NCBI GenBank assembly: GCA_965238305.1
Contig: CBDEHK010000001.1
Span: forward strand, 893,717 to 957,716
DNA: 64,000 bases
Reading direction: 5' to 3'
Source: Alphaproteobacteria bacterium
Lineage (GTDB): Bacteria; Pseudomonadota; Alphaproteobacteria; GCA-2731375
The translations under genes were made by a program, and so were the position numbers. Under the pieces are notes generated by a model, which searched no databases, was not told the DNA's origin, and saw only the letters and a list, made by a program, of their open reading frames with translations. Shown piece by piece: positions 11,681 to 37,619 of this stretch (its first letter is position 1; every line of letters begins with the position of its first letter).

Positions 11681-12895
11681 TTATGATAGTTCAGCCTTCG
11701 CCTGGGCAGTGATGGCGCCAAGGGTGTCCATGTGGGCGCGGTGAGCGATATTTTCTGCCGCCGTCTCCGCCGCATCCAGGATATCCCGATTGCTGGAAAT
11801 ATTGCGGATGGCATTGGCGATCTCGTCGGCACTTCGATTGTCGGTCCTGGCTTGATGAACACTGGCGCCAAAAGTGAGCAGACCGCGGGCGGTGATAAAA
11901 TGTTCCAAATTTTGCGATAACACAAATTGCGGTGTCCCGGCCAGAAGTCCGGCCAAGGCGGTTCCAAGTCCGGCGTGATGGATTAGCAATTTAGTTTCCG
12001 GCAGCAAGTTTTTGAGGTCGAGCGGCTTATCGTGTAACCGAACGTTTTCACCAGCCCACGACGTAATTTTTTTGGGAGCGCCGGAGATATACACTTCACA
12101 AAGCAGACCGCTGCCGGTCATGCCGCGGATAATATTTTCAAGCTGAGTGTGATTGCCAGGCAAATAGGCGACGACGGGCGGACCGCTACGCCCTTCTACT
12201 TTACCGCCAGACCTGGGAATATCGATATTGAAGGGGAAATGATCCGTTTGCTCACGATAGGCGGCGTAGGGGTCGAATTCATCAATCGAGCACACAAAGG
12301 TTTGATGGCCGGAAAACAAATCGCCAAAATAGTCGATCGCCGGGTCCTTGAATTTCTGCGCCACGCTATTGAAGGCGGCCAAGGCTTCGCCTTCATGTAT
12401 TCGGCTATAGGGCTGAACTTCGCTCACCCAAGGTCGCATCGGCGGCAGCAGTTGGCCGGCTGGCGGCACCGTGTAACCATTGCCGACAACAAGGCGACGG
12501 ACCCTGTCACGGGCCGCCAAGGCGACGGAAGGACTGAAGTCGGATACGATTAAATCCGGTTTCAGGCGATCGATCATCTGGCGCCATTGGGCGATATAAT
12601 CGACTAAGCGGTCGGCCTGATAATAGCCAAATAAATGCAACACGTCGGCGAAGGTGTGGGTCGGAATTTCGCGAATTCGCGGATTATTCGGCGGCTGCCA
12701 AGATCGGGCCTGCAATAGCTGATAGTCGGTACCCGGCTCGGCCAAGGCGGTCAATTCGGCCTGCACTTCCTTTGGATTTGGGGCCGCGATAGCGATCTTG
12801 TGGCCGACTTTTTTCAGCTCCGCAGCAATCGGCAGAAAGCGTCGTAAATGGCCCAGGCCACCGCCGAATTCCCAGGTAAACAATACATTTGCCAT
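11681..12895 (-). CDS. GT-B glycosyltransferase
   Basis: WEFGGGLGH, PDLIVSDF, IHHAGLGT...GTPQ. Confidence 0.82.
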   Translation of the reverse strand: MANVLFTWEFGGGLGHLRRFLPIAAELKKVGHKIAIAAPNPKEVQAELTALAEPGTDYQLLQARSWQPPNNPRIREIPTHTFADVLHLFGYYQADRLVDYIAQWRQMIDRLKPDLIVSDFSPSVALAARDRVRRLVVGNGYTVPPAGQLLPPMRPWVSEVQPYSRIHEGEALAAFNSVAQKFKDPAIDYFGDLFSGHQTFVCSIDEFDPYAAYREQTDHFPFNIDIPRSGGKVEGRSGPPVVAYLPGNHTQLENIIRGMTGSGLLCEVYISGAPKKITSWAGENVRLHDKPLDLKNLLPETKLLIHHAGLGTALAGLLAGTPQFVLSQNLEHFITARGLLTFGASVHQARTDNRSADEIANAIRNISSNRDILDAAETAAENIAHRAHMDTLGAITAQAKAELS

Positions 12896-13038
12896 CTACA
12901 ATAATCCGAACGAAATGCACAATCGCGAGTTCGGCTACCATAACGATAAATTTAACTTGCGCCAATTCATCGCTTGATCTGCTGTGACGACCTGGACATA
13001 TTGCGGACGCAACAATTATGGAAGTGTTTCCGTCACCC

Positions 13039-13905
13039 ATGCGCATACTTTTCACCATCCCGCATTATTATAGCCAAACCGAAAATGGCTTTTATGGCTC
13101 GCTTGCTTCGCCAGCCCAGAAGCGGTTGAATGTATTAAGGACCACCATTGCTTCCCTGTATCAGAATTTCGGTCCACGCCAGGGGCTGACTTTTTCAACG
13201 GAACGGCGGATCACCGGCGCCAATCGGGCACGTGATAACCGGATCGAAATTGTCGTCTGTACAAATGGCGACAATCATCTTCTGAACCATTTACCCAAAG
13301 GGCTGGTAAGCGGGCGTGATACGCCAGGTGATCCGATGTATCTGGGTTATGGTTGCCAGGAAGTGCTGGCTTCTAGGGTTGATGATTTTGACTATTTCTG
13401 TTTTTTGGAAGACGACATTTTTGTTTCCGATCCGGAGTTCTTCGCCAAATTAGCCTGGTTCCAAACCCTGGCCGATGAGGAAAGCCTGTTGCAGCCCAAT
13501 CGCTATGAGCTGCGTCTCGATCAACCGGTACACAAGCTCTATATTGACGGGAATCTAGGAAAACCCGGGATCAGCGAAAGATTTCAAGACATTTCCGTCG
13601 ATCCCAATCTACAGGGTGAACATCTTGGTCGCCGGATCAACTTTCAGCGCGTTAACAATCCCCATTCCGGGTGTTTTTTCCTCAGCCAAGAACAAATGCG
13701 GCGCTGGATGGCGCGCTCCGATTTCCTCGAACGCTCGGATGACTTCTGCGGCCCGTTAGAAAGTGCCGCGACTCTTGGCATCCTGCGTACATTTAAGATT
13801 TACAAAGCTAGTCGCGAGAACGCCGGCTTCCTGGAAGTGCGGCACGGCGATAACCGTTATCTCGGGAATCGCATGCAAATCCCACCGAACTGGCAGCCAG
13901 ACTAA
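13039..13905 (+). CDS. Conserved protein, possibly GT-A-like
   Basis: Long ORF starting MRILFTIPHYY; DYFCFLEDD resembles a GT-A DxD/EDD motif; lies between glycosyltransferases. Confidence 0.55.
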   Translation: MRILFTIPHYYSQTENGFYGSLASPAQKRLNVLRTTIASLYQNFGPRQGLTFSTERRITGANRARDNRIEIVVCTNGDNHLLNHLPKGLVSGRDTPGDPMYLGYGCQEVLASRVDDFDYFCFLEDDIFVSDPEFFAKLAWFQTLADEESLLQPNRYELRLDQPVHKLYIDGNLGKPGISERFQDISVDPNLQGEHLGRRINFQRVNNPHSGCFFLSQEQMRRWMARSDFLERSDDFCGPLESAATLGILRTFKIYKASRENAGFLEVRHGDNRYLGNRMQIPPNWQPD

Positions 13906-13919
13906 GTTGACTGGCCGTT

Positions 13920-15179: not shown

Positions 15180-16076
15180 TTACAGCAGTTCTTTCTGGTC
15201 TGGCCGGTTCGGCTGGTCTGGTGCCAAATGTTGGCTTCTGTCGTATCCCAGTTGGCGATAAAAGTCGTTGCAGTTTTTGAACAAGGCGGTGGTTTCCGCC
15301 GCTTCCAGGTCGGCCGGTTTGACATAGCCTGGGTCGACGAAGTGATGTTGATTGCCACTGGCGACTTTGGGCTGGGTATTGATTTTACGATCCATGACGG
15401 CGCGGTTGATGCGGTCGGTGCCAAGAAAATTTTGCAACTGATCAATATGCCCGTCGGTGTCGGCGACCATGTTTTCATACTTGAAGATGAGTTTATGCTT
15501 CGGCTGCAGCTTGTGGATAGCGTTGATATTCTCCATCCAACGCTGCCCGAAGCGGGTATAGGCGGCCAGGTTCGGGTAATCGCCTGGCCATCTGGCCTTG
15601 GCCGAGCGGGTCACCGGATAAAGATCCCGGTAGATGCATATATAATAAGCTTCCGGCAATAATTTGGTCAGGAAAGCATAACCCTGGGCGTTGAAAATCT
15701 GATGTTTGATGCCCCAGCTCTCAAAACCCAGATCGCGGGAATAATCCGCATAAAACTTGACCAAATGATGAAAACCGGCCCGCACCGCCGCCAAATACTG
15801 AAAGCGATCGGGGAACAAGCTGCTGCCTTCGAAATCGTCGTCGCTGTTGAGGAAAGTTTCCCGCACTGCCTTGGTCGCCTGATGTTTTTGTTCGGCGTCC
15901 ATATGCTGGCCCTGGATCATCGCCGGAAAGCGATCGAACATATAGAAATTCTCACCATAGATGATGTAATCACGGGTCGAATTCAGTAGCCGCTGCAATA
16001 ACGTGGTACCGCAGCGGGTGGTTGGGCCGACAATTATCACCGGCGAATTCGGTCCTGGCGGCATCGTGATCTCCAA
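15180..16076 (-). CDS. Sulfotransferase family protein
   Basis: GPTTRCGTTLL (5'-PSB), WGIK, IYRD...S, FKYE; stop abuts the next ATG. Confidence 0.82.
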   Translation of the reverse strand: MEITMPPGPNSPVIIVGPTTRCGTTLLQRLLNSTRDYIIYGENFYMFDRFPAMIQGQHMDAEQKHQATKAVRETFLNSDDDFEGSSLFPDRFQYLAAVRAGFHHLVKFYADYSRDLGFESWGIKHQIFNAQGYAFLTKLLPEAYYICIYRDLYPVTRSAKARWPGDYPNLAAYTRFGQRWMENINAIHKLQPKHKLIFKYENMVADTDGHIDQLQNFLGTDRINRAVMDRKINTQPKVASGNQHHFVDPGYVKPADLEAAETTALFKNCNDFYRQLGYDRSQHLAPDQPNRPDQKELL

Positions 16077-16243
16077 ACGCTAATATCGATCTGTTTTGCG
16101 AAGATATAGAATTAATTCGTGAACATATATAGGGGCGAACAGATGCCGTCGACAGTAGATTGGATACTAGTTGTTTACTCAGTCAACGCGGCAATTTATA
16201 TACGAGACCAAATCAAATGATCACGCGGAAAAAGACCACATTC

Positions 16244-17047
16244 ATGGCAAGCAAAATTTTCGGCATCGGGCTTTCGCGAACAGGCACCTCCACCTTGATT
16301 AATGCTTTTGGCGTACTTGGGTACAAAGCCATCCATTTTCCGTTTCGCGCGGACGATTTTGACACCCATGAAGCGGCCGCGGACACACCGGTGGCGGCGC
16401 GCTTTGTTGAACTCGACAAAATATATCCGGGCAGCCGATTTGTTTACACCACCCGTGATTTGGAAAGCTGGTTGGCTTCGTGCGAGCGCTTTTGGGCCAA
16501 ACGGCAGGTGATTTTTGATCGCTCTGATTTCGTCAGCGACATGCATCGGTATCTTTACCAGACCACCACCTATGACGCAGATAAATTTGCCGCGGCTTAT
16601 CGACGACACGATAGCCGGATACGCGAATATTTTGCCACTCGACCAGACGATTGGCTGGAGTTTGATATTTGTGGCGGCGCCGCGGAATGGCCTCCACTAT
16701 GCGATTTTCTCGGTCGCGAACGGCCATCCTTGCCGTTTCCATGGTCGAATAGAGGCGATATCATCGATCAAATGTTAATTCGCGCGCTGCACGTTCTGGA
16801 CGATGTGGAACTGGTGGGTCGAATTACCAATGTTTCGCCGGTCCATCTCAAGAAATTGACCAATTCTAATGGTTATGCAGATCACGACGTCAAGACGATT
16901 TTGGCTTATGACGATGGCGCCGAGACGGCCTATTTGGCCACCCGCTTATGCCAAGGCGTAGGCGGTGCGGCGGCGGCGGCGGAGACTTTTGGTTTCGATC
17001 AAGAAAAACTAGAAATCAGTGTTGAATTCGTCAATGCTCGCCACTAA
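16244..17047 (+). CDS. Sulfotransferase family protein
   Basis: KIFGIGLSRTGTSTL, YPGSRFVYTTRD..SW..S, WPPLCDFLG, PFPWSN. Confidence 0.85.
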   Translation: MASKIFGIGLSRTGTSTLINAFGVLGYKAIHFPFRADDFDTHEAAADTPVAARFVELDKIYPGSRFVYTTRDLESWLASCERFWAKRQVIFDRSDFVSDMHRYLYQTTTYDADKFAAAYRRHDSRIREYFATRPDDWLEFDICGGAAEWPPLCDFLGRERPSLPFPWSNRGDIIDQMLIRALHVLDDVELVGRITNVSPVHLKKLTNSNGYADHDVKTILAYDDGAETAYLATRLCQGVGGAAAAAETFGFDQEKLEISVEFVNARH

Positions 17048-17054
17048 TTGGCCG

Positions 17055-17070
17055 TTAACCATCTGTTAAC
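17055..17070. promoter_or_regulatory. CtrA-type box upstream of RTX gene 1
   Basis: TTAA-CCATCTG-TTAAC = TTAA-N7-TTAAC. Confidence 0.6.
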
Positions 17071-17330
17071 TACATAATTTTGTTCACTTTCTTTGGTTTG
17101 TTGCATTATTATCACAAAATACCCACCTATCGCCAAATAATCCCCATTTCGCCTGACAATTGAACTTGCATTATAAAAACGATCAGGTATCTTCCAAGTT
17201 GGCCTTTGGGGGGAGCTCCCGGGCGAAGTGTATTTCGGTTTGGCGGCGCGAGGATCATATCTCTCGCGGGAGCTGAGCCAGGAATACCGAAGTAGATTTT
17301 GAAGCAACTGCAAATTTTGGAGTAAATTTT

Positions 17331-19127
17331 ATGGTTACAACAGTAAACGGCTCAGATCTTTCTGACGCCATTTCGCTATCCGGCGACACCGCTTATGAAG
17401 CCAACGGCATGGGCGGCGACGATACCTTCACAGCAACAGCCGCGAATTTCGGTGCGGCGACGATTAATGGTGGCACTGGCGATGACAGCGTCTATCTGTC
17501 GACGGGTACCTTGCTTGCCTACGGCAATGAAGGCGATGACGATATCTATCTTGCTAACGGTGATGCCGACGTCTATGGCGGTCAGGGTAACGACGACATA
17601 TCTGTAAACAACGGTTCTGGTACCCTTCAGGGTAACAAGGGCGATGATAACATCACCGCCAATAACTGGGCCGGCGCGATTTCCGGCGGCACCGGTGCGG
17701 ACTATATTAATGCTAATGGTACCGGCAATTTTGCGCTCGATGTCGATGGCGGTGCCGGCAACGATACCTTTACGATTGCCGGTGTTGTGGGTCTTAATCT
17801 GACCGGCGGCGCAGGCGATGATAATATCATTGCTGGTGGCACCGGTGGGTCGATTTACGGTAACCAAGGTGACGATATTATCACCGTGAACGATACCGCA
17901 GCCAGCGTATATGGCGGTCAGGGCAACGATGTTATTGCAATTACGGCAAACTTATCTGGCGATCTACAGGGTAATAAGGGCGATGACAATATTGTTGCGA
18001 TCAATGTTGTCGGCGATATTTCGCTGGGCACCGGCGACAATATTCTTTCCGCCGTCAACGTAACCGGCGACATTAGCGGTGCTGAAGGTAATGACGACAT
18101 CACCGTCGCCAAGTTGGTGGGTGATGCCGACCTGGGTGACGGCGACAACACCCTCGCAGCCAATACGTTGACCGGTAATGTCTTGGGCGGTGCTGGTGAC
18201 GATTCGGTTGATATCGCTGCCAACGTGGTTGGCGATATCGATCTAGGTGACGGTGCGAATACGCTGACCGTCGCAGGCAAGATGACCGGCGATGTTGCCG
18301 GCGGTACCGGTGTTGACGCGGTGCAGATTGCGGGCGCTTATTCGGGCGATGCAATGCTCGGCGATGAGGCTGACTTTTTTACCGCCTCCAACGCTTTTGC
18401 CGGTAATCTCCACGCTGGTGCCGGTGATGATAGTTTGAATCTTGGAACGCAAGTCAGCGGTGCTGTCTACGGCAACCAAGGCGACGATACTATAATCGCT
18501 TCGGTGACAGGCACTAATTCGCTTGGGATTTATGGCGGTCAAGGCAACGACGTGATCACGGTGCAAGGTGCCGGCGATGCGGTCGTGCATGGCAACAAAG
18601 GCGACGATGCCATTAATATCGTTGCCGGCAGCCAAGAAGTGCATGGCGGCAGCGGCGCGGATGTCATCGGCGATACCGGTGGCGGCGCCCAAGTCGTTTA
18701 CGGTAACCAAGACGGTGACATGATCTCTCTGGGCTCTGGTGCCGATACGGTCTATGGCGGTCAAGGCGATGACACGATCGTTCACTCCACCGCAGGTGGC
18801 AGCGACGTGCTCTATGGTAACAAGGGCGCTGATTTGTTCTCGGCTGCCGTGGTGACCGTGGCTGATTCAAAAGTCACTGCCGGCGGGGACTTTACGATTG
18901 GCGACTTCTCAACCGAAGACACACTTCTCATTGATGGTGGCGGCACGGGCGCCTCTTTGGTGACCGTGAATATGATCGCGGTGGCCGATGGCGGCTCGAC
19001 CGGGACGGCGGGTGATGTAACCCTCGCCTTTGCGACCGGCACGATTACCCTGGAAGGCATCGGTGATGGCACTTTAACCGACTTGTTCGCGTTGGCGGCA
19101 GCAGGCTACACGATCACGCTTGCCTAA
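17331..19127 (+). CDS. RTX-type Ca-binding beta-roll surface protein, paralog 1 (S-layer candidate, T1SS substrate)
   Basis: GGxGxD nonapeptides throughout, no Sec signal, T1SS downstream, GGAG RBS. Confidence 0.88.
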   Translation: MVTTVNGSDLSDAISLSGDTAYEANGMGGDDTFTATAANFGAATINGGTGDDSVYLSTGTLLAYGNEGDDDIYLANGDADVYGGQGNDDISVNNGSGTLQGNKGDDNITANNWAGAISGGTGADYINANGTGNFALDVDGGAGNDTFTIAGVVGLNLTGGAGDDNIIAGGTGGSIYGNQGDDIITVNDTAASVYGGQGNDVIAITANLSGDLQGNKGDDNIVAINVVGDISLGTGDNILSAVNVTGDISGAEGNDDITVAKLVGDADLGDGDNTLAANTLTGNVLGGAGDDSVDIAANVVGDIDLGDGANTLTVAGKMTGDVAGGTGVDAVQIAGAYSGDAMLGDEADFFTASNAFAGNLHAGAGDDSLNLGTQVSGAVYGNQGDDTIIASVTGTNSLGIYGGQGNDVITVQGAGDAVVHGNKGDDAINIVAGSQEVHGGSGADVIGDTGGGAQVVYGNQDGDMISLGSGADTVYGGQGDDTIVHSTAGGSDVLYGNKGADLFSAAVVTVADSKVTAGGDFTIGDFSTEDTLLIDGGGTGASLVTVNMIAVADGGSTGTAGDVTLAFATGTITLEGIGDGTLTDLFALAAAGYTITLA

Positions 19128-19149
19128 ACCAACGAACGCAGTTGCTTCG

Positions 19150-19179
19150 AAAGGGCCGGGGATTTCCCCGGCCCTTTTT
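19150..19179 (+). terminator. Rho-independent terminator
   Basis: AAAGGGCCGGGG-ATTT-CCCCGGCCCTTTTT. Confidence 0.9.
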
Positions 19180-19200
19180 CTTTGTTCGGACTACATTTTG

Positions 19201-19216
19201 TTAATCTTGCGTTAAC
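19201..19216. promoter_or_regulatory. CtrA-type box upstream of RTX gene 2
   Basis: TTAA-TCTTGCG-TTAAC(CAT). Confidence 0.6.
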
Positions 19217-19286
19217 CATCTCTTTGGGCGATAATTTCGACCGAATCGAATTAGTTGCTGCGGCTTCATAAAACGGGGAAAATTCC

Positions 19287-21095
19287 ATGGTTACCACAGT
19301 TAACGGCTCAGACCTTGACGATTTGATCACATTATCCGGCGATACCGCTTTCGAAGCCAACGGCATGGGCGGCGACGATACTTTTGTTACCACGGCCGGT
19401 AATTACGGCGCCGCGACGATTACCGGCGGCACCGGCGATGATAGCGTCGATATCGGCACCGGCGATTTGTTGTTTTACGGCAACCAGGGCGCCGACGACC
19501 TATATATCGCCAGCGGCAATGTCTCTCTATTCGGCGGGCAGGGTAACGACATCATGGAAGTTCATACTTCCGGTTCGGGCGTCATCTACGGCAACAAGGG
19601 CGATGACGACATCATCGCCATCAATTGGGCTGGCGACGTCTTCGCCGGCACCGGCGACGACAGCGTCACCGTGACCGGGGTCGGTAATTTCGCTGTCCAT
19701 GTCGATCTCGGCGACGGCGACGACACGTTCTTCGCCTCCGATCACGGCAATCTCAACGTCGTCGGCGGCAGCGGCGACGATTCCATCAGCCTCGACAACA
19801 ATGTCGTCAACGCGGTGGTCTATGGCAACCAAGGCCATGACAGCATTTATGCCCTTTCCAACAGCGCCACGACGATCTTTGGCGGTCAGGGCAACGACAC
19901 CATCTTCCTGAGCGGCGGTTCCTTCACCGGCGATTTGCACGGCAATAAGGGCGATGATTCAATTACGGCGGACACCATTGTCGGCAATGTCAATCTGGGG
20001 ACCGGCAATGATACGCTCTACATGACCGGCGACCTGACCGGTGATTTGATGGCCGGCAGCGGCAATGACAGCGTTTACAATAACAACGATTCTATCAATG
20101 GTGATGTCGACCTTGGTGCGGGCGATGACACCTTGAGGGCCGATCATATCAATGGCAATGTTACCGCTGGCGCTGGCAGTGACAGTGTCTGGTCCGACCA
20201 AGGCACGGTCGGCGATGTCGATCTGGGTGACGGCGACAATCTGTATTTCGTCCACAACAACAACCACACCGGCAATATTACCGCCGGTTCCGGCGCCGAC
20301 AGTGTCGGCATTTCAACTGGCTCCATTGTCGGCGATGTCGACCTCGGTGCTGGCAATGATACCTTAAATGTTGGCGCAGGGCTTACCGGCGAAGCGTTTG
20401 GCGGCGAGGGCGAAGACACCCTCCGGGCCGGATTTTTGGACGGCGCCGTCTATGGCAATCAGGGCAACGACAGCATCACCCTGGGGGCCAGCGGCACCGC
20501 CGAGGCGGCAGCCTATGGCGGTCAAGACAACGACATATTTTATCTCTTTGGCACCGGCACCGCCACCGCCTTCGGCAACAAGGGTGATGATTCGATGTTT
20601 CTGGATACCGGCGACCATATCGCCCATGGCGGCAGCGGTGCCGACACTATCCTTGCCGGCAGCGGCGCCAGTCTGATCTACGGCAACCAGGACGGCGATA
20701 GGATCTCCGCCGGTGGCGGCAACGATACCATCTATGGCGGTCAGGGTAATGACACTATCATTCATACTACGACCGGCGGTAATGAAGTGGTCGCCGGCAA
20801 CAAGGGCGCTGATCTGTTCATGGCGTCGTTCAATAATACGGCGGCATCGGTGACCGGTGGCGGGGATCTGACGATTATGGATTTCTCCACCTCGGATACC
20901 CTTAATATCACCGGCACCAGCGGTGGCGGGGTGACGGTGAATATGGTTGTCGTATCGGAAACCGGCACGGTCGTCGGTGGTGATGTTCTGTTGGTTATGG
21001 GCGCGGTGACGATCACGTTGGAAGGCATTGGCGACGGCACCATGAACGATCTGTTCGATCTGGCGGGCGCAGGTTTCACGATCACGCTGGCCTAA
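19287..21095 (+). CDS. RTX-type Ca-binding surface protein, paralog 2
   Basis: Same N-terminus MVTTVNGSDL and C-terminus TITLEGIGDGT...TITLA; RTX repeats. Confidence 0.88.
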   Translation: MVTTVNGSDLDDLITLSGDTAFEANGMGGDDTFVTTAGNYGAATITGGTGDDSVDIGTGDLLFYGNQGADDLYIASGNVSLFGGQGNDIMEVHTSGSGVIYGNKGDDDIIAINWAGDVFAGTGDDSVTVTGVGNFAVHVDLGDGDDTFFASDHGNLNVVGGSGDDSISLDNNVVNAVVYGNQGHDSIYALSNSATTIFGGQGNDTIFLSGGSFTGDLHGNKGDDSITADTIVGNVNLGTGNDTLYMTGDLTGDLMAGSGNDSVYNNNDSINGDVDLGAGDDTLRADHINGNVTAGAGSDSVWSDQGTVGDVDLGDGDNLYFVHNNNHTGNITAGSGADSVGISTGSIVGDVDLGAGNDTLNVGAGLTGEAFGGEGEDTLRAGFLDGAVYGNQGNDSITLGASGTAEAAAYGGQDNDIFYLFGTGTATAFGNKGDDSMFLDTGDHIAHGGSGADTILAGSGASLIYGNQDGDRISAGGGNDTIYGGQGNDTIIHTTTGGNEVVAGNKGADLFMASFNNTAASVTGGGDLTIMDFSTSDTLNITGTSGGGVTVNMVVVSETGTVVGGDVLLVMGAVTITLEGIGDGTMNDLFDLAGAGFTITLA

Positions 21096-21117
21096 AACAA
21101 CGAACGCAGTTGCTTCG

Positions 21118-21149
21118 AAAGGGCTGGGAGAAATCCCGGCCCTTTTTTT
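21118..21149 (+). terminator. Rho-independent terminator
   Basis: AAAGGGCTGGGA-GAAA-TCCCGGCCCTTTTTTT. Confidence 0.9.
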
Positions 21150-21420
21150 GTTTTTTTAGTCATTATGGTTAAACTTCAAACTTCACCAAATCTCAACCTT
21201 ATTACGCATATGAATCAATTTTTACGAGTGTATTTGACGCGTTGCTTTATCCGCACTCATTAGTAAAAAGTAATGTAAAATTAAGCAGTTACAACAATAT
21301 ACGAAATTAAGCTTGATCATTAACCATATCCCGATCATACTGCCAGCGATTCAATTTGTGCTGGTGGATTGGGCGTGTTGCCGTTTCCGCAAAGTTTAAT
21401 AGAAACCGGAGAACAATAAT

Positions 21421-23232: not shown

Positions 23233-23271
23233 CCACTGGCGTAAAATGAAGTAATTGCAGTTGCTTCATGG

Positions 23272-23303
23272 AAAGGGCTGGGAGAAATCCCGGCCCTTTT
23301 TTT
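23272..23303 (+). terminator. Rho-independent terminator, identical to that of paralog 2
   Basis: AAAGGGCTGGGAGAAATCCCGGCCCTTTTTTT. Confidence 0.9.
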
Positions 23304-23420
23304 GTTGACGTTCTTTTGCTTGTGTCGACTTGGCAAGAAGCGGTAAATATGTCCGATGTTGAGACGCCGGGACGATGGCCGCCTAGTTGTCTTTGTTGTT
23401 GGTTTGAGGAAAATAAATAG

Positions 23421-25286
23421 ATGGCAAAACGACAGGATGCGGCGCAACTCGTCCGTCAGATTGAACAGAAAATTCAAACCGGCGATCGCGCCAGCGCCCG
23501 CAAACTCTATCGCCAGATCGGCCGCCAGGTGGTCAAAAACCCGAAACTGCTGCAGCAAATCGGCGCCCTGGCGTAACAATGTGACGACTTTCGCCCGGCT
23601 ATTGAATATTGGCGTCAGGCCAGTTTGCTGGCGCCAAAAAACGCCATGCTGTTCAGTCAAATGGGCGTCGCCTGGCGCAAACTTGAACGCTTGGAAGAAG
23701 CCAAACAACAACATTTAAAAGCGGTGGCGCTGGCGCCGGAACAGGCGGTCATTCACAACAATCTTGGCAATACCCTGCGCGATCTGAAAGAAGCCGAAGC
23801 CGCCGAGCGCCATTTCCTCGAAGCAATCCGCCTCAGCCCCGAATACCATCAAGCGCATGCGAACCTGGGCAATATTTTCCTCGATCGGGAAGAATTTGCG
23901 GCAGCGGAGAAACATTATCGCCGGGCCTTGGATCTCGACAAAAGCTATCTCAGCGCTTGGGCCGATCTTGGCAATGTCTATCGCTTGCAGGATAAGTTTC
24001 CCGCCGCCATCCAATGTTTCCGCAAAGCCCTGGCAATCAATCCGAATTATGCCCCGGCCTATCTGAACCTGGCGGCCACTTTGCGACGCACCGGGCGCCT
24101 GGATGGTACCGAAGATATGCATCGCAAGGCCCTTGAGCTTGACCCCGGATTGGCGGAAGCCTGGGTGGCGGTGGCGAACGATATTCAGCAGACCGGCGAC
24201 GACGATGAAGCGGTGCGCTACTTACGCAAAGCAATGGACCTTAATCCGAAGCTGACCTCGCCCTATCTGACTCTGGCCTCGATCCAGCATATTGGCCTCA
24301 GCAAAGACGAAATCGATAGGGCGGAGAACCGCTTGACGGGCGAACAGATGAAGTCCGACGAACGCTCCACCCTGCATTTCGCGTTGGCGCGGGCCTATGA
24401 AGCAGAAAAAGAATATGATGCCGCTTTTCGGCATGCCGCGGCGGCCAACCATATCGACCACGCGTTGGTGGATTATGATGCCGAGGCCAACCGCGCCTTC
24501 ACCCAGCGCACAATGGAAATCTACAATCCGGAATTTTATGCCGCGCGACAGGATTTTGGCGTCGATGACAATCGCCCGATCTTGGTCTTGGGGCTGCCGC
24601 GCTCCGGCACCACCTTGGTGGAGCAGATCCTGGCCAGCCATCCGGAGGTGTTTGGGGCGGGCGAATTGGTGGATTTTCCCGATGCGCAGAAAACCATCGC
24701 CGCAACCTTGGTAAAGCCGAAGACCGGACCGGATTTTGTGTTTGATTTGACGGCGGGAAATGCGGAAGAAATCGCCTTTGAATACCAAAGGTTATTACGG
24801 ACCCGAGATGAAAATTCACCGCGCATCACCGACAAACTACCGTTCAATTTCCGCCAGCTCGGGCTATTTCATCTGTTGTTTCCAAAGGCCAAAATTGTCC
24901 ATTGCCGGCGCGATCCCCGGGACGTGGCGATTTCATGCTATTTCCTGAAATTCACCAAACCGATATCTTTTGCTTACGATCTCAACGATTTCGCAACCTA
25001 TTACGAGCAATATTTACGCTTGATGGAGCATTGGAAAAGCCTATTCCCGGACGCGATTTACGATATTCGCTACGAAGAGCTGGTCGAGAATAAGGAGCAG
25101 AAAACCAGGGAAATGATCGATTTTGTTGGTCTACCTTGGAACGATAGCTGTTTGGACCACCAGAATACCCAACGCGAAATCAAAACGGCAAGCAGCTGGC
25201 AGGTTAGGCAGCCGGTTTACAAAACCTCTGTCGAACGCTGGCGGCGCTATGAAAAACATATTGAACCAATCCTTCATCTGCAATAA
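23421..25286 (+). pseudogene. TPR-repeat sulfotransferase with in-frame TAA at codon 52 (23574-23576); intact downstream ORF 23625..25286
   Basis: GAGG-preceded ATG 23421 is in frame with the ORF; TPRs, GLPRSGTTLVEQIL, DKLPFNF, TASSWQVRQP. Confidence 0.65.
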
Positions 25287-25374
25287 TTAAGGCATCTACA
25301 GCCAAGCGCCGCAACTTTGGTGGCGCTGGGGTATTCGCCGAAAAATCAATCGGCAAGGTTTCTGGAAATTCGTA

Positions 25375-27177: not shown

Positions 27178-27292
27178 TCGATGGTACCAAATATCCCTTA
27201 TGATAGGCCAGCAAATGCTTGCTTATTAGCGGGATTTTGTGCATGTTCCGCCAGCATTATCGTATGAACGCCGGCCAACTTTTTAGGTAGAA

Positions 27293-29803
27293 ATGTCGCA
27301 AAATAATCAACAAGAAGTAAGTTCGTTGAAGGCGGATCTGTCGTCCCAGATCGCGCAAGCCAAGTCGCTTCGCGATGCTGGTGAAAATGCTGCGGCTGAA
27401 GTTGAGCTGCGCCGCTAGCTGCGCGAATATCCTGAAGACACTGATATATTACGGGCGATCGGAAAAGTTGCGCAAACCGGGCAACGGTTCGACGAAGCGC
27501 TGGATTTCATGTCGCGCGCCTTGCGGGTCGCGCCAAAGGATGCCGGCACGTTGGCTGATCTTAGTCATCTGCATTTTGTCATGGGCAACCTGCCGCACGC
27601 CGAACATTTTGCCCGCCGCGCCTATCGTGCCGATAACAACTCGGCCCATGCGGTTAAGACTTTGGGCGATGTATTGGCGACCAAAGGCGAGCTTGACGAT
27701 GCGGAAAAGTGTTATCGCCGGGCCATTCGCTTCAATAACGAATATGCCGAAGCGCATAACAATATTGGCAACGTGTTTCGCCAGCAAAACAAAACCAAAT
27801 ATGCGGAACAGGCTTTCCGGCGGGCCATTGAGTTGGATGTTAAACTTGTTCAGGCGCATAGCAATCTCGGCGTCTTGATGATCGAAGCGGAGAAGCCGGA
27901 AGAGGCGTTGGTCCATTTCCAGAAATCTATCGAAGTCGGCGCCGGCACCCAGACAATCTATCGCAACATGGCAAAAGCGTTTGTCGGTTTGGACCGGGTC
28001 GACGACGCCATTGACTTGCTTCGATCGAACCTGTCGAACCTCGTCGGTGATGTTCCCAATCTTATTCAAATCGCTGAATTGGAAATCACCAAAGAAGAGT
28101 TCGAACAGGCAGCCGAGACCCTTAATCAAGTGTTGGAACTGGACCCGGCGGTGAACCAACCGCATATCCTGTTATGTAGCCTTTACCGCAAGACCGGCGA
28201 ATTTGAGCAATCGATCCAGCATGGCCGGCAGGCGGTGGAAATTGAGCCGGATAATGGCGATACCCATGTCGGCCTCGCGCGTGTCCTGGCGGAAACCGGT
28301 GCGATCGACGATGCGGAAATTCATTTCCTGCGTGCCCTGGCCTTGGACGAAGATAATATTGTCGCCCATATCGGGATCGCGGCGATCGAAGAAAGCAAAG
28401 AAAACAACAAGGAAGCGGAAGAGCATTATCAAAATGCCCTCAAGCTTGATCCAGACAATGTTTTTGCCGCCGTTAGTCTTAGTCATTTTTATACCAAGCT
28501 CGGACGCTACGCCAAAGCCCGCGACCTGCTCGAACCGATGCTTGAAAGTCAGGTCGATTCTGAACGCGTACATTTGAATTACGCCAGCGTCATGCTGGAA
28601 CTGAACGAATATGAAAAAGCCCGGGTTCATATCGACCGCGCCCTTGAAATCAAACCCGAATACCCTGAAGCGCAGGTTAATTTGGGTATCTGGCATCAGC
28701 AAATGGGCAATTTGGACGCTGCCAACAGCGCCTATCTGGAGGCGCTGGAAATCCGACCGGAATTTCCTGAAGCCCTTTTTGCCCTTTGTTATTTGAGCGC
28801 TGATCTGCCGAGCGATGAATTGATTGAAAGTATGAAGACTTTGGCGGCGCGGGAAAGTCTGGCCGAACATCATCTAAGTACGCTTTCTTTTGCGATCGGG
28901 ACGTCGCTCGATCGCCGGGGCGAAACGAAAGAAGCGTTTGAATATTTGGCTAAAGGAAACGCCATTGAGCATGGCAAAGCAAAATTCGACTTGCCGGCCT
29001 TTGTGAAGAGCATCGATCAGACGATTGAAACCTTTACGCCCGAGTTCCACAGCCAGCGCGAAGGTTTTGGCAGCAGCTCGAAGATTCCAATTTTTGTCAT
29101 CGGGCTGCCGCGATCTGGTACCACCTTGGTGGAACAGATCATTTCCAGCCATCCGAATGTGTTCGGCGCTGGCGAACTGGCCCAGGTGGCTGAAATTGCC
29201 CGCCGCGTTCCGGAAATCAATCAATCCAAACGAAGTTTTCCGGAAGGGGCTGTAGATCTGAATGAAGCCGACATCCTTAGACTGGCCGGGGGATATCTTC
29301 GATATTTGCGCGGCATCAGTGGTGGTAGCGAACGTGTAACCGACAAAATGCCGTTCAATTATACTCGCGTCGGGCTGATAAAATTATTGTTCCCGGAAGC
29401 TAAAATAATCTGTTGTGATCGGGATCCGAAAGATATTTTCATTTCCGGCTACGGTTTGAAATTCAAAACTCCGATTGCGTTTACCAGCAATCAGGAAGAA
29501 TTCGCCGGTGTTTACAAGCAATTCCGGCGTTTGATGCAGCATTGGGACGATTTATTTCCGAATGCTATTCAGTATATTCAATACGAAAAATTGGTGCAGA
29601 ACCAGGAAGCCGTCAGTCGCGAGATATTGGCACACTGTAATCTTGAATGGGATGATAGTTGCCTCGAATTCTACAATTCCAAGCGCCCTGTAAAAACCGG
29701 CAGTAACGTGTCTGTCCGCAAACCGATGTCGGAGCAGTCGATCGGTCGTTGGCAACGCTACGAGGAATTCCTCGGACCGCTGGTCGCAGAATTGGCGAAA
29801 TAG
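27293..29803 (+). pseudogene. TPR-repeat sulfotransferase with in-frame TAG at codon 42 (27416-27418); intact downstream ORF 27509..29803
   Basis: ATG 27293 is in frame with the ORF and TPR-like sequence continues across the stop (ELRR*LREYPEDTDILRAIG); GLPRSGTTLVEQII. Confidence 0.62.
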
Positions 29804-29874
29804 ATCGCCGTTCTGTTGTCGCCAATTGTATATGTTAACGACCCAAGTGTCGTTGAAAAGAAAGTCGAATTAAC

Positions 29875-31671
29875 ATGAGCGAAGCTTCGATGACCCTAGG
29901 CGCTGCGATACGTACGGGGCGAACGGAATTTTGGGTTGCTTTTGTGCTCAGCTTTTTCATCAATATGCTAATGCTGACAATGCCGCTTTATATGATCCAG
30001 ATTTTCAGCCGGGTGTTGATGAGCAACAGTAAGGAAACCCTTTTTGTCCTGACTGTTGCGGCTCTCGGTGCCCTGGTCTTGATGGGTGTGTTGACGTCGC
30101 TGCGCGGCCGCTTATTGGCGCGCTGGAGCGCTAAGGTGGATACCCATCTGGGCGAACGGGTCCATGCGGCACTGGTTCAGCGTGCCTTGTTGAACCATTC
30201 CGGCCGCAATGTGCAGTCGCTGCGGGATCTGTCGCAAATTCGCAATATGATTGCCGGCAGCGATGTGCAGACCCTGTTGGACTTGCCCTGGATGCCGATC
30301 TTCCTCTGGGTGATTTGGCTGCTGCATCCCCTGATGGGCATGGTCGCGATCGCTGGCGCCTTGGTGCTGCTCGGTTTCGCCGTCTTGAACGATGTCTTGA
30401 CCCGGAAACCATTGGAAGAAGCCAATGGCGCCGCCACCAAAGCTTACGGCGCGGCGATGATGAATGTCCGCAATGCGGAAGTCATCCAAGGCATGGGCAT
30501 GTTGCAAAATGCCTTGCAAAGCTGGCGTGGATATAATGCGCAAGTGCTGGATAACCAATCGAAGGCGATGGACACGGCCGGCAATATCGCGGCGATGACA
30601 AAATCCGCTCGCCTGATGGTGCAGGTGTTGATTTTTGGCACTGGCGCCTATCTGGTGTTGAACCAGGAAATGACCGCCGGCCTGATGATCGCGGGTGTGT
30701 TTATTCTAGGCCGCGCCCTGGCGCCGGTCGAAATGTCGGTGCGGACCTGGAAGAATATGGTCTCCAGTATCTCGGCTTACCAACGTCTGACGACTTTGTT
30801 GAATAATGTGCCGGAGCAGGCGGAAACCATGACCTTGCCGGCACCAAAAGGAAAGCTGCAGGCACAGCATCTGCTTTTTATGCCCTTTGGCGCCGACAAA
30901 GCGACGGTACAGCGGGTGACATTTGTTCTCGAACCGGGCGAATCTCTTGGCGTGATCGGTCCCAGTGGCTCCGGCAAATCGACCCTGGCGAAGTTGCTGG
31001 TCGGCGTCTGGGTGCCGACCCGTGGCCATGCCCGACTTGATGGCGCCGATGTTTCAAGTTGGGACCCGAATGACTTGGGCCAATATGTCGGTTATCTGCC
31101 GCAGGACGTCGAACTATTCGAAACCAGTGTGCGTGAAAACATCTCCCGCCTGTCAGATGCGGAATCGGAGGAGATCGTTGCGGCGGCAAAAGCGGCGGGT
31201 GTCCACGAGATGATCCTGCGCCTGCCGGAAGGATACGAGACCAATATTGGTGACAGCGGCAGTCTGCTGTCCGGCGGCATGCGGCAGCGCGTCGGCTTGG
31301 CGCGGGCATTGTTCGGCAACCCGAAACTGATGATCTTGGACGAGCCGAATTCCAATCTTGATCGAGAAGGCGAGATTGCATTGATGAAAGCCCTGGCCAA
31401 CGCCAAGGCGCGCGGCTGTACCTGTGTCATCATTGCCCATCGCCCGTCGATCCTGACGAATGTCGATAAGATCATGGTGATGAATAACGGTCAGATGGAG
31501 ATGTTTGGCGATCGCGCCGACATCTTGGCAAAACTGGGCCCGCAACAATGGCGCCCGCAAGTGGTCGGTCGTAAACCCGGACAGCAAGGGGCGATCGCCG
31601 ATGACAGCGATGGACAAAAACAGCAAAAACCAGCACAGACGCCGCCAAAAGCACCGCAACAAGGCCAATAG
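29875..31671 (+). CDS. Type I secretion ABC permease/ATPase (PrtD/RsaD family)
   Basis: PLYMIQIFSRV, LLDLPW, GRALAPVE, GPSGSGKST, LSGG, LDEPNSNLD. Confidence 0.95.
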   Translation: MSEASMTLGAAIRTGRTEFWVAFVLSFFINMLMLTMPLYMIQIFSRVLMSNSKETLFVLTVAALGALVLMGVLTSLRGRLLARWSAKVDTHLGERVHAALVQRALLNHSGRNVQSLRDLSQIRNMIAGSDVQTLLDLPWMPIFLWVIWLLHPLMGMVAIAGALVLLGFAVLNDVLTRKPLEEANGAATKAYGAAMMNVRNAEVIQGMGMLQNALQSWRGYNAQVLDNQSKAMDTAGNIAAMTKSARLMVQVLIFGTGAYLVLNQEMTAGLMIAGVFILGRALAPVEMSVRTWKNMVSSISAYQRLTTLLNNVPEQAETMTLPAPKGKLQAQHLLFMPFGADKATVQRVTFVLEPGESLGVIGPSGSGKSTLAKLLVGVWVPTRGHARLDGADVSSWDPNDLGQYVGYLPQDVELFETSVRENISRLSDAESEEIVAAAKAAGVHEMILRLPEGYETNIGDSGSLLSGGMRQRVGLARALFGNPKLMILDEPNSNLDREGEIALMKALANAKARGCTCVIIAHRPSILTNVDKIMVMNNGQMEMFGDRADILAKLGPQQWRPQVVGRKPGQQGAIADDSDGQKQQKPAQTPPKAPQQGQ

Positions 31672-31683
31672 GCGAAAGTAGTA

Positions 31684-33015: not shown

Positions 33016-33037
33016 TGGCGAACCGCAATTACCTGGG

Positions 33038-34315
33038 TTAAGCGATCGAACGCACGGGCTGGCCCGGCGGTACAACCGCGTTGGGATCCGTTGCCTGCGG
33101 TCGCCGACGGTTCGCCAAGGTTTGTAATAGACGCAATTGCGCCGGCAGACATTTTTCCAGATCATACCGCTCGAGTACTGTTAGCCGGGCATTTTCGCGA
33201 ATTTCGGTCATGCGCGCCTGCCCGTCCAATGCTTCGATGACCCGATTGGCAACGTCATCTGAAGAGAAAAAGTCGACCAGCAAGCCGTTCCATCCATCCT
33301 CGATCACTTCGGTTACCGGACCGGTATTTGAGCCGATCACGAGACAGCCCGCGGCCATCGATTCCAGCATCGACCAAGACAGGACAAACGGTTTGGTCAA
33401 ATATATGTGGGCGGCTGATACTTGCAGGACTTTTAGATACTGGGCGTAGGGCAGCGTGCCGAGGAAATGCACCCGGTCGTGATCGATATCGACTTCCTTT
33501 AACATTTGTTCTTTGTGGGTTTCTCCCTGCGGCAGTTTGCGGCCATACCCGGCTTTGTTCCCGCCAACCAAAAGAAAGTGGCAGTTTGGGCGTTCTTTGC
33601 AAAGCCGTTCGATCGCTCGCATCACCGTTGGAAAACCACGATAGGGATCCATATCGCGGGCCACGTAGCTTACCACTTCATCACCAGGGCGGATGACGCT
33701 GCCATCGGGCAGGGTGACTTGTGCGTTGGCATCGGGACGCACGATCTGGGTGTTCACGCCTTCGTGGATGACGCTGATTTTCGACTTGTACAGATCAGGT
33801 TGTTGATTGAACTGCCAATAGGTCGGGGTTAGTCCCCAATCGGCGCTGTCCAGGGCCATTAAATTGATTGAGTTCTTGGTGCGAATGCGTAGCAAATTGT
33901 CCCATTCCGGCTTTTCCACCGGATCAAAATGCACATCGGCGCCAAAGGCATGATAGTAGAATTCGAAATAATTCAACAAAGGCACATCGGCCAGGACATC
34001 TTTGACATACATCGCCTCACCCCAACCAGGATGGGCAACGACAATGTCCGGTGTAAAACCTTCTTTGCGTAGATTGTTGACCGTCTGCGCCACCGGCTGA
34101 CCGTGGCAAATGCCATTTTGTAGGCCCTGAATATAGTGATGGGTGCCGGGCGGCTTTTGGGCTCGCGGCTTATATTCGACTTTGCGGACACCCTGCAGTT
34201 CTTTTTTCGTCGCTTTGGTAATAAACACGACTTCGTTGTCCGGACTGCGCGCTATGTGGCGCGCCATGTGGACAAACTGGCCAGGCATGTTCTGGTGAAT
34301 AAAAAGTGCTTTCAT
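33038..34315 (-). CDS. Glycosyltransferase family 4 (paralog of 13920..15179)
   Basis: HQNMPGQF, HPGWGE, PYRGF, FVLSWSMLESMA. Confidence 0.92.
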   Translation of the reverse strand: MKALFIHQNMPGQFVHMARHIARSPDNEVVFITKATKKELQGVRKVEYKPRAQKPPGTHHYIQGLQNGICHGQPVAQTVNNLRKEGFTPDIVVAHPGWGEAMYVKDVLADVPLLNYFEFYYHAFGADVHFDPVEKPEWDNLLRIRTKNSINLMALDSADWGLTPTYWQFNQQPDLYKSKISVIHEGVNTQIVRPDANAQVTLPDGSVIRPGDEVVSYVARDMDPYRGFPTVMRAIERLCKERPNCHFLLVGGNKAGYGRKLPQGETHKEQMLKEVDIDHDRVHFLGTLPYAQYLKVLQVSAAHIYLTKPFVLSWSMLESMAAGCLVIGSNTGPVTEVIEDGWNGLLVDFFSSDDVANRVIEALDGQARMTEIRENARLTVLERYDLEKCLPAQLRLLQTLANRRRPQATDPNAVVPPGQPVRSIA

Positions 34316-35001: not shown

Positions 35002-35571
35002 TTGTTGATGGAAAGCGACAGAATAAAGGACGCGAATTTGATGACGCAGGTGGCGGCGGGTGACCGCCGCGCCCAGCGTCAGCTTGTCGACGCCCATCTG
35101 GGACCGATATTCGCTTTGGCCAGGCGGATGTTAAATAACACCGCACAAGCCGAAGACAACTGCCAGGAAGCCTTTTTACGGCTATGGCAAGTCGCCCCGC
35201 GTTGGCAACCGGACGCCAAAATCGGTACCTGGCTTTATCGGATTACCTATAATCTTTGTATCGACGAATTGCGCCGCCAGCGCCGTTTGTCGGACGAAGA
35301 GGCGCCGGAGCAGGCCGACCCGGCGCCCAATGCGATGGAGCAACAGCACCGCCGGGAAGTTCTTGCAACCCTGGAGGGGGAGATGGAAAAACTACCGCTC
35401 AGGCAGCGGACGGCAATCACCCTGGTGCATCATCAAGAGTTGAGTAACATCGATGCGGCAGACATTATGGAGATCAGTGTCGATGCCTTGGAATCACTGC
35501 TGGCCCGGGGGCGGCGAAAATTGCGGCTGGCCTTGCTTGCACAGAAAGAAGAGCTGATAGGAGCGCTATGA
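35002..35571 (+). CDS. ECF sigma-70 factor
   Basis: AEDNCQEAFLRLW, TWLYRITYNLCID, region 4 LPLRQRTAI...ESLLARGRRKL. Confidence 0.93.
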   Translation: MLMESDRIKDANLMTQVAAGDRRAQRQLVDAHLGPIFALARRMLNNTAQAEDNCQEAFLRLWQVAPRWQPDAKIGTWLYRITYNLCIDELRRQRRLSDEEAPEQADPAPNAMEQQHRREVLATLEGEMEKLPLRQRTAITLVHHQELSNIDAADIMEISVDALESLLARGRRKLRLALLAQKEELIGAL

Positions 35572-35981: not shown

Positions 35982-35985
35982 GATA

Positions 35986-36444: not shown

Positions 36445-36448
36445 TTTT

Positions 36449-36475
36449 TCGACGGAAATCTTTCCGTGCGACGTT
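36449..36475 (+). promoter_or_regulatory. Putative ECF sigma promoter
   Basis: TCGACGGAAAT-N12-CGTT. Confidence 0.55.
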
Positions 36476-36523
36476 TGAAGATGTGTTGGAGGGGTCATGA
36501 CCGACAAAACGGGAGTAGACAAA

Positions 36524-36970: not shown

Positions 36971-36997
36971 AATTTTCGCGGACTTCTCAACTTAAGC

Positions 36998-37492: not shown

Positions 37493-37619
37493 TTTGGGTC
37501 TCCGACCGGCTGGCAATAATGGCGAATAAAACTGGGATGTCTTTTGTTTGAATGATCGAGAGACTATAAACGATATTTGAATTCGTACCCAGAAGCAGAA
37601 TGTCGCAGGGGGAAACATT

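Follow-up and report, generated by a model that had tools for sequence, protein, structure and literature searches.

A collinear trio of TPR-sulfotransferases between RTX genes and a type I secretion pump: a candidate modification-and-export locus in an alphaproteobacterium

Gene content and conservation of the locus

We analyzed a stretch of 64,000 nucleotides of DNA (hereafter the window) from an Alphaproteobacteria bacterium of the GCA-2731375 lineage (assembly GCA_965238305.1, CBDEHK010000001.1:893,717-957,716, forward strand; whole genome 4.93 Mb). It holds three tandem genes for acidic RTX proteins (RTX1 to RTX3), followed by three genes for sulfotransferases that carry tetratricopeptide repeats (TPR-sulfotransferases A, B and C, hereafter the trio) and by the two genes of a type I secretion system (T1SS) pump, a PrtD-type ABC exporter and an HlyD-family membrane-fusion protein. 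A first-pass annotation of the window had described three tandem RTX genes of about 600 amino acids (aa), three TPR-sulfotransferases, two stand-alone sulfotransferases, three glycosyltransferases of the GT-B fold, a GT-A-like open reading frame (ORF) and the PrtD/HlyD pair. As presented in Table 1, every member of this set was confirmed by the ORF listing and by family scans, in which all three RTX proteins scored above the PF00353 cut-off of 23 bits.

We then compared the locus with those of relatives. In locus L015, from an alphaproteobacterial metagenome-assembled genome (MAG), the genes follow one another in the same order as in the window: a GT1, the GT-A-like gene, a GT4, a small sulfotransferase, RTX, the trio, PrtD (77% identity), HlyD (61%), the second GT4 (69%) and an EF-hand protein (49%). 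Identities were 56% for the GT1-like GT-B protein, 64% for the first GT4 and 53% for the small sulfotransferase, the orthologs of the GT1-like and EF-hand proteins lying at equivalent places. The GT1 genes of L015 are two in number, a TylF-like methyltransferase gene is also present, and one RTX gene (624 aa) stands before trio members of 622, 599 and 836 aa. Three TPR-sulfotransferases in a row were likewise found in L017 and L019. The PrtD gene lies directly behind the trio in the window, L015 and L019, and an RTX-like gene lies directly before it in all three loci that show DNA upstream of the trio (the window, L015 and L017; the L019 contig begins at the first trio gene). In L017 this is a 443-aa acidic beta-roll gene, which scored 89.8 bits against the RTX-paralog profile with a high composition-bias term (52.6 bits). 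A 449-aa ORF of L017, antisense to the RTX-like gene, was dropped as a gene.

The first-pass annotation had named the absence of sulfotransferases beside RTX homologs in other genomes as the observation that would speak against a common system; we found the RTX-like gene followed by the trio in both L015 and L017. Given this recurring gene order, the RTX genes, the trio and the T1SS form one conserved functional unit. The single RTX/sulfotransferase/T1SS system claimed earlier thus stands as a conserved unit of recurring order, whereas two of its attributes, the switching of the RTX genes and the pairing of three enzymes with three RTX proteins, do not.

Concerning this pairing, a maximum-likelihood tree of the catalytic domains from the four loci (window, L015, L017 and L019) separated the first, second and third genes into three groups (supports 93/85, 83/95 and 99/96). 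Because the tree splits the genes by position across four loci, the trio is ancient and collinear: three distinct enzymes whose order has been maintained. With three ancient orthogroups on one side, and one RTX gene at the L015 locus or 14 intact paralogs in the source genome on the other, it is a coincidence that the window has as many trio enzymes as RTX genes, three of each.

Table 1. Features of the locus and RTX copies elsewhere in the source genome. Coordinates without a prefix are positions in the window; those with the prefix C1: are genome coordinates.
Feature	Position	Strand	Evidence
GT-B glycosyltransferase, GT1/EryCIII-like C-terminal domain, 404 aa	11681-12895	-	PF06722 E 3e-13
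GT-A-fold glycosyltransferase, family without name, 295 aa	13018-13905	+	AlphaFold2 model and Foldseek
GT4 glycosyltransferase with PF12000 N-terminal domain, 419 aa	13920-15179	-	PF12000 E 1.3e-47
Small stand-alone sulfotransferase, 298 aa	15180-16076	-	PF13469 E 9e-21
Small stand-alone sulfotransferase, 295 aa	16160-17047	+	PF17784 E 1.9e-29
RTX1, 598 aa	gene 17331-19127; terminator hairpin 19149-19178	+	PF00353 24.7 bits
RTX2, 602 aa	gene 19287-21095; terminator hairpin 21117-21146	+	PF00353 46.7 bits
RTX3, 603 aa	gene 21421-23232; terminator hairpin 23271-23300	+	PF00353 32.7 bits
TPR-sulfotransferase A (orthogroup 1)	full frame 23421-25286, 621 codons; open ORF from TTG 23625, 553 aa	+	TPR and PF13469
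TPR-sulfotransferase B (orthogroup 2), intact, 600 aa	25375-27177	+	TPR and PF13469
TPR-sulfotransferase C (orthogroup 3)	frame from ATG 27293 to 29803; open ORF from ATG 27509, 764 aa	+	TPR and PF13469
T1SS ABC exporter, PrtD type, 598 aa, without N-terminal peptidase domain	29875-31671	+	TIGR01842 696 bits (cut-off 510)
T1SS membrane-fusion protein, HlyD family, 443 aa	31684-33015	+	TIGR01843 393 bits (cut-off 209)
Second GT4 glycosyltransferase with PF12000 domain, 436 aa	33038-34348	-	PF12000 E 2.4e-60
EF-hand calcium-binding protein, 144 aa	34506-34940	+	EF-hand families E 2e-21
Large GT-B glycosyltransferase, 569 aa	38105-39814	-	PF00534 E 3e-16
Main RTX array, 11 copies (10 intact, 1 frameshifted)	C1:809469-831274	+	about 62 kb before window start
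Single RTX copies	C1:221868 and C1:3823139	+	
Broken RTX copy	C1:3828298-3829860	+	

Other genes of the window lie outside this set. Between the EF-hand gene and the large GT-B gene (35002-37618) are an extracytoplasmic-function (ECF) sigma factor, a 137-aa ORF without family (a possible anti-sigma factor), a CpxP/Spy-like PF13801 protein, a 157-aa ORF and a PCuAC copper chaperone. An adenylate/guanylate cyclase gene (39887-41011, minus strand) adjoins the large GT-B gene, and a DUF5675 gene with two small ORFs without family (53554-55229, minus strand) occupies the stretch of lowest GC content in the window (0.45).

The RTX family and the question of switching

RTX1 shares 54% identity with RTX2 and 68% with RTX3. 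Pairwise alignment bore out the earlier description of near-identical termini around diverged cores: about 55 N-terminal and about 35 C-terminal residues are nearly identical in the three proteins, and the cores differ. The source genome encodes 14 intact paralogs and two broken ones, all 16 on the plus strand, and 11 of the intact paralogs lie outside the window. The intact paralogs share 49-85% pairwise identity, with 83% in the first 40 alignment columns, 88% in the last 34 and 42-60% in the core. They are 590-604 residues long and very acidic (isoelectric point about 4, 12-15% aspartate), with 14-18 GGxGxD-type motifs each; 13 of the 14 have no cysteine and the remaining one has a single cysteine. 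Glycine- and aspartate-rich nonapeptide repeats together with a conserved C-terminal end, the predicted secretion signal, assign the three proteins of the window to the RTX class. Codon adaptation of the paralogs ranked between the 79th and 98th percentiles, in a genome of weak codon bias (reference mean 0.755, genome median 0.723).

The AlphaFold2 model of RTX3, built from 14 sequences, is one unbroken beta-roll with strands from residue 2 to about residue 510 (predicted local distance difference test score, pLDDT, 87; predicted template-modelling score 0.80), the last 90 or so residues, at the secretion-signal end, being of low confidence. Neither this model nor the family scan revealed a domain besides the repeats or a separate N-terminal domain. 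A Foldseek search with the model returned RTX and beta-helix proteins only, with modest scores, such as the RTX part of CyaA (E 1.6e-4) and a calcium-dependent antifreeze beta-helix (E 5e-4). Structure prediction against RsaA, the S-layer protein of Caulobacter crescentus, had been proposed as a check of the coat reading; RsaA matched at E 9e-4 (6p5t; template-modelling score 0.17-0.20) and 0.047 (5n8p), which indicates no fold likeness beyond the shared RTX repeats, since CyaA and the antifreeze protein rank equally or higher. An S-layer role for the RTX proteins is a reasonable guess. Rods with variable middles and with selected ends common to the whole family would suit envelope anchoring or end-to-end assembly.

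Few genomes were found to carry this family. The L015 MAG has a second RTX array of three intact copies and one split copy, whose termini show the family patterns MVTT... and ...TITLEG[VI]GDG...GY..T[LF]A, and the L019 genome gave ten RTX-like matches on small contigs. A large protein search with RTX3 returned no close relative (best match 33% identity among the 8000 candidates scored, those with the most words in common with the query), and a metagenome scan with the RTX alignment gave 100 pattern matches and no relative among them. So far, the family therefore appears confined to the source genome and the L015 MAG, the genomes of L017 and L019 having look-alikes that are more remote. This restricted distribution and the lack of any domain but repeats would both agree with RTX paralogs that are unmodified soluble exoproteins, active in calcium binding, adhesion or competition and not part of a coat, beside transferases that serve an unrelated product. 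The TPR-sulfotransferases at large, which are generally without conserved neighbors (the most frequent neighbor family occurs in 12 of 76 loci), could be counted for the same explanation. We consider it improbable given the RTX-like gene directly before the collinear trio wherever upstream DNA is available, and the T1SS genes directly behind the trio in three loci.

The first-pass annotation had also taken the RTX proteins for switchable, alternative coats. In such a system, one paralog would be expressed at a time and cells would switch between paralogs, as in the sapA variation of Campylobacter fetus. Many paralogs with conserved ends and variable middles are what such a system would show. 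The regions upstream of the genes are also of more than one kind: a conserved 5' leader stands directly before the ATG in 9 of the 14 paralogs, RTX2 included, so that at least five upstream regions differ from the common one and differential regulation is possible. A TTGTCT-17-CATACT element lies further upstream and is common to several paralogs. A scan with the sigma-70 consensus found no enrichment (15 sites against 14.3 expected), and an Rfam scan of the window gave no family at gathering score, with chance-level matches only upstream of the RTX genes; a promoter is thus predicted from the conserved upstream sequence alone. Regulatory genes were observed near the RTX copies, and those of the main array can be counted in favor of switching: a BTAD/SARP-type regulator with TPRs is encoded inside the 11-copy array (C1:817233-819212, minus strand), with a hybrid PAS histidine kinase before this array and a histidine kinase after it. 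An adenylate/guanylate cyclase gene (L007:14702-15907, minus strand) lies between the RTX copies at C1:3823139 and C1:3828298.

Against switching, the copies are all on one strand, and neither opposed orientations nor silent copies were seen. The claim that each RTX gene has its own terminator held: hairpins with a 13-bp stem and a T-run follow RTX1 and RTX2, the identical hairpin sequence was read directly behind RTX3, and variants of it occur behind most paralogs. Each copy is thus self-contained, with an upstream region and a terminator of its own. Among the neighbors of the array we noticed neither an invertible segment nor a recombinase gene, though no dedicated inverted-repeat search was run. 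At four-fold-degenerate sites, identity between paralogs was 0.54-0.57 at the conserved termini compared to 0.46-0.54 in most of the core. Because synonymous sites have diverged equally along the whole gene, the termini appear to be kept by selection on the protein and not by recent gene conversion, unlike cassettes maintained by recombination. Differential regulation of the copies is possible; nothing supports a switch, which we regard as highly improbable.

Sulfotransferases and glycosyltransferases of the locus

The PRSGTT loop, which binds the sulfate donor 3'-phosphoadenosine 5'-phosphosulfate (PAPS), is invariant in all three TPR-sulfotransferases. Compared with solved structures, the catalytic domain of TPR-sulfotransferase B (query 18-214, about 197 residues) matched the protein-tyrosine sulfotransferases (TPST) TPST2 (E 5.3e-9) and TPST1 (E 3e-7), within a TPST range of 5e-9 to 5e-7, and CurM-type polyketide sulfotransferases were the next-best match (E 4e-8). 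Among solved structures, the catalytic domains therefore look most like protein-tyrosine sulfotransferases, tyrosine sulfation itself being a prediction. The best natural matches of the TPR part were the TPRs of the protein-modifying OGT (E 7e-43) and SPINDLY (E 5e-28), below two engineered consensus TPR proteins, and this likeness may merely reflect consensus-like repeats. Since no signal peptide was seen when the N-termini were read by eye, the trio enzymes are predicted to act in the cytoplasm. An adenosine 5'-phosphosulfate (APS) kinase is encoded in the genome, and PAPS is presumably available to the trio there. TPST-type enzymes bind extended acidic peptides, and RTX repeats stay disordered without calcium. 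In RTX3, 7 of the 12 tyrosines stand in h-Y-G-[GN]-x-G-x-D contexts rich in aspartate and glycine.

Two of the three genes carry an early stop. In gene A, an in-frame TAA (23574-23576, codon 52) occupies a position where the 622-aa L015 ortholog has phenylalanine, and an in-frame start follows 17 codons downstream. In gene C, an in-frame TAG (27416-27418, codon 42) is followed by an in-frame start 30 codons downstream, and the 836-aa L015 ortholog aligns across the stop with 47% identity. Both frames are otherwise open with intact motifs. Contigs of two runs from one sample (X1 and X2) agree with the window sequence over 16100-25300, without any difference over 23277-25300. Either shorter proteins are made from the internal starts or decay has just begun; because both stops fall within the first tenth of the genes, internal starts seem the better explanation.

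Relatives of the trio were collected by scanning one genome per species with an alignment of the three enzymes, which gave at least 519 of them, and 76 loci were examined. Beyond the clade of the trio, TPR-sulfotransferase genes are often found in tandem, with surroundings that vary. Altogether, 120 copies of TPR-sulfotransferase genes lie in 70 of these 76 loci. Their most frequent neighbors were TonB-type receptors (12/76), and 2-oxoglutarate-Fe(II) oxygenases occurred in 7/76. A metagenome scan with TPR-sulfotransferase B returned 78 loci, 17 with at least two TPR-sulfotransferases and none with T1SS, RTX or GT4 neighbors; one close ortholog was found, on a 3.9-kb contig. None of the six multi-copy arrays that we examined belongs to a polysaccharide cluster. 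Among the relatives, we also observed a PEP-CTERM protein (521-1612) beside a three-copy array in L168, again with a 2-oxoglutarate-Fe(II) oxygenase, a fusion of TPR, 2-oxoglutarate-Fe(II) oxygenase, TPR and sulfotransferase (L021:8429-11404) and a 2029-aa ORF with several sulfotransferase units (L142:6914-13003).

Concerning the two stand-alone sulfotransferases, a PDB sequence search with the first one (15180-16076) found no relative. The second is closest, among solved structures, to the small-molecule sulfotransferases SgdX2 and oxamniquine sulfotransferase, and no counterpart of it was found in L015.

The GT-A-like ORF had no Pfam or NCBIfam match. With its AlphaFold2 model (pLDDT 71), Foldseek found 304 PDB chains at E<=1e-3, led by the collagen galactosyltransferase COLGALT1 and by polypeptide GalNAc-transferases. 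Orthologs are present in L015, L095, L103 and L130, and the EDD motif at residues 131-133 is invariant in the five orthologs. In a protein atlas, this protein falls into clusters of 290-330-aa proteins without Pfam families that are commonest in Cyanobacteriota and auto-named 'calcium-binding protein', a placement that may point to a connection with the RTX loci of that phylum.

The two GT4 glycosyltransferases with a PF12000 domain are paralogs (46% identity). We scanned 400 other genomes of the class for orthologs of the second one, found them in 53 and fetched 40 ortholog loci. A PrtD-like gene lies within about 9 kb in 13 of the 40 loci and an HlyD-like gene in 12, and no TPR-sulfotransferase occurs in any of them. 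Because PrtD- and HlyD-like neighbors are frequent and TPR-sulfotransferases absent, the link between this GT4 and the T1SS extends more widely than the trio. The large GT-B has orthologs (37-47% identity) next to the PF12000 GT4 in 8 of the 40 loci and also in L017, which makes it a fourth GT-B member of the conserved set, in addition to the three listed earlier. Two further arrangements were observed. The alphaproteobacterial locus L091 (G337:C36:252300-272200) combines a 727-aa RTX gene, a methyltransferase, a SapC-family gene, PrtD/HlyD, the PF12000 GT4 and a second RTX gene. The source genome has a further cluster of modification genes some 7 kb ahead of the large RTX array (C1:795083-802865), which encodes a WsaF-like glycosyltransferase, a GT2, a methyltransferase, a small PF13469 sulfotransferase, a TOD1/MUCI70-like protein, a 543-aa TPR protein whose C-terminal part is unassigned and a 372-aa protein without family.

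Proposed pathway and known systems

No other PrtD-type exporter was found in the genome, the next match being a 755-aa HlyB-like ABC protein with 29% identity. The TolC-like genes of the PF02321 family, two in number, are both outside the window (C1:266 kb and C1:3038 kb). Because this is the only PrtD-type pump and the C-terminal signal is common to all paralogs, the window is most likely the export core for the whole RTX family, as far as gene content can tell.

Taken together, these observations are best explained by a window that serves as the export-and-modification core for a lineage-specific family of very acidic, all-beta-roll RTX proteins. The RTX proteins would be made in the calcium-poor cytoplasm with their repeats unfolded, and there the trio would use PAPS to sulfate them, either at tyrosines or at sugars that the glycosyltransferases of the locus had attached. 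All paralogs would be exported by means of their common C-terminal signal, through the single PrtD/HlyD pump and an unlinked TolC-like channel. Outside the cell, calcium would fold the proteins into rods about 500 residues long, which would cover the cell with a polyanionic layer or with fibrils, and the conserved N-terminus might serve anchoring, assembly or enzyme docking. In this pathway we infer the RTX proteins as acceptor, the modified residue, export through PrtD/HlyD and the surface role. The proposed order of modification and then export is coherent and would be analogous to raxX-raxSTAB of Xanthomonas. We give cytoplasmic modification, T1SS export and the formation of an anionic coat or fibrils a probability of about 0.45.

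Several points weigh against this pathway. Modification, secretion and surface location of the RTX proteins are all predicted from genes and models alone. The early stops in trio genes A and C raise the possibility that the system is partly in decay in the source strain. Among the relatives of the TPR-sulfotransferases, a T1SS is found nearby (PrtD-like gene within 10 kb) in just 5 of 76 genome loci, which include the closest relatives of the trio, and in 0 of 78 metagenome loci. Of 40 related genomes, among them an 87% complete one from the same genus, none gave a match to the RTX family at E<=1e-20. In addition, Y22 and Y598 of RTX3 are replaced by phenylalanine in some paralogs or orthologs; because tyrosine and phenylalanine alternate at these positions, the candidate tyrosines may be purely structural. 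Finally, some related loci have a different setting. In L092 and L094, a WecA-type transferase and nucleotide-sugar genes (epimerases, ManC) adjoin the PF12000 GT4 and the large GT-B, a setting that fits lipid-linked glycan synthesis better than protein glycosylation, and in L044 and L030 a TPR-sulfotransferase lies beside Wzm/Wzt and small sulfotransferases.

These last loci lead to the main rival, which is a serious one: the glycosyltransferases and sulfotransferases would make a sulfated anchoring glycan of the cell surface, either an O-antigen of lipopolysaccharide (LPS) or a capsule-like one, and the RTX proteins would be secreted unmodified and bind to it, as RsaA binds the O-antigen. 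Besides the WecA-type context of L092 and L094, it can draw on the PrtD-like genes in 13 of the 40 PF12000 GT4 loci and on L044 and L030, where a T1SS ABC gene accompanies the TPR-sulfotransferase and Wzm/Wzt (an RTX gene was seen in L044). The source genome itself has a Wzt gene with an adjoining sulfotransferase at C1:2.07 Mb, far from the window, and O-antigen genes follow rsaDE in Caulobacter, which we counted on the same side. The locus shared by the window and L015, on the other hand, contains no enzyme that initiates synthesis on a sugar carrier, no flippase, no polymerase and no Wzm/Wzt glycan exporter, the T1SS being the only exporter there and the RTX protein the only predicted product of export. 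The TPR-sulfotransferases resemble protein-tyrosine and not carbohydrate sulfotransferases among solved structures, their absence from all 40 GT4 loci places the trio outside the general GT4-T1SS glycan set, and the multi-copy arrays examined stand apart from polysaccharide clusters. We therefore regard the sulfated anchoring glycan as possible, though on the unlikely side, and prefer RTX proteins that are themselves modified before export.

In our opinion, the most interesting element of the window is the conserved collinear trio between a putative RTX substrate gene and its pump. A literature search found no description of a collinear trio of TPST-like TPR-sulfotransferases in such a position. 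The RaxX peptide is, to our knowledge, the only known case of bacterial protein sulfation, and T1SS substrates are known to be acylated, with none that we know of sulfated or glycosylated by dedicated neighboring enzymes. Sulfation of surface proteins before export would thus be new for bacteria, and the trio between substrate gene and pump offers a directly testable candidate pathway. It also suggests a possible function for the bacterial TPR-sulfotransferases, a large family that is unstudied (one genome scan gave at least 519 relatives), and the 14 paralogous rods with selected termini could become a tractable model for RTX recognition, export and surface assembly. A bolder form of the proposal, which we put forward as doubtful, is a new bacterial modification system in which three TPR-bearing TPST relatives and cytoplasmic glycosyltransferases decorate disordered RTX proteins before T1SS export, so that sulfated, mucin- or proteoglycan-like beta-roll rods from a 14-member family clothe the cell. 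If true, the rods would be the first bacterial structural sulfoproteins, and TPR-sulfotransferase arrays beside other exported proteins, such as the PEP-CTERM protein of L168, would be variants of the same principle.

Among known systems, the window resembles RsaA/RsaD/RsaE of C. crescentus in having an acidic RTX gene beside a PrtD/HlyD-type pump, glycosyltransferase genes near the pump and, presumably, an unlinked outer-membrane channel. It differs from that system in that the fold match is generic, the modelled RTX rod begins at residue 2 without a separate N-terminal domain, 14 paralogs replace one gene and the trio stands between the substrate and pump genes. With SapA/sapCDEF of C. fetus it shares several homologous genes with a conserved end and a variable rest, T1SS export (here predicted) and, in the related locus L091, a SapC-family gene. 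The C. fetus type of variation relies on promoterless homologs in opposed orientations and one movable promoter, the conserved ends being kept alike by recombination, whereas the RTX copies have their own upstream regions and terminators on the same strand, without homogenization of their ends at the DNA level.

Three publications on RaxX-RaxSTAB of Xanthomonas describe a tyrosine-sulfated peptide that is exported by a T1SS-type transporter (PMC6637879, PMC11554876, PMC4646787). The likeness, by description and not by RaxST sequence, is that of a TPST-like sulfotransferase gene beside a presumed substrate and ABC/adaptor genes. In the window, the putative substrate is a structural RTX protein of 600 aa and not a peptide of 60 residues, three enzymes are present, each with a long TPR domain, and the exporter is of PrtD type without a peptidase domain, as it is in L015 and L019. 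Hydroxylation and sulfation of secreted bacterial proteins have been predicted in general terms (PMC2938197), in a text whose available part does not describe a locus of the type found in the window.

Oscillin of Phormidium uncinatum and SwmA of Synechococcus are glycosylated RTX surface proteins. In the available part of PMC3034196, oscillin is a highly glycosylated, 646-residue RTX protein, shaped like a rod, that consists of repeats and forms surface fibrils, and sulfotransferases are not reported for it there, unlike the situation in the window. The comparison is one of architecture only: a rod, about 600-650 residues in length, that RTX repeats make up from end to end (590-604 residues here, in a modelled rod), with glycosyltransferase genes nearby. 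By this measure, and as far as that source goes, oscillin appears to be the nearest described protein to the RTX family of the window.

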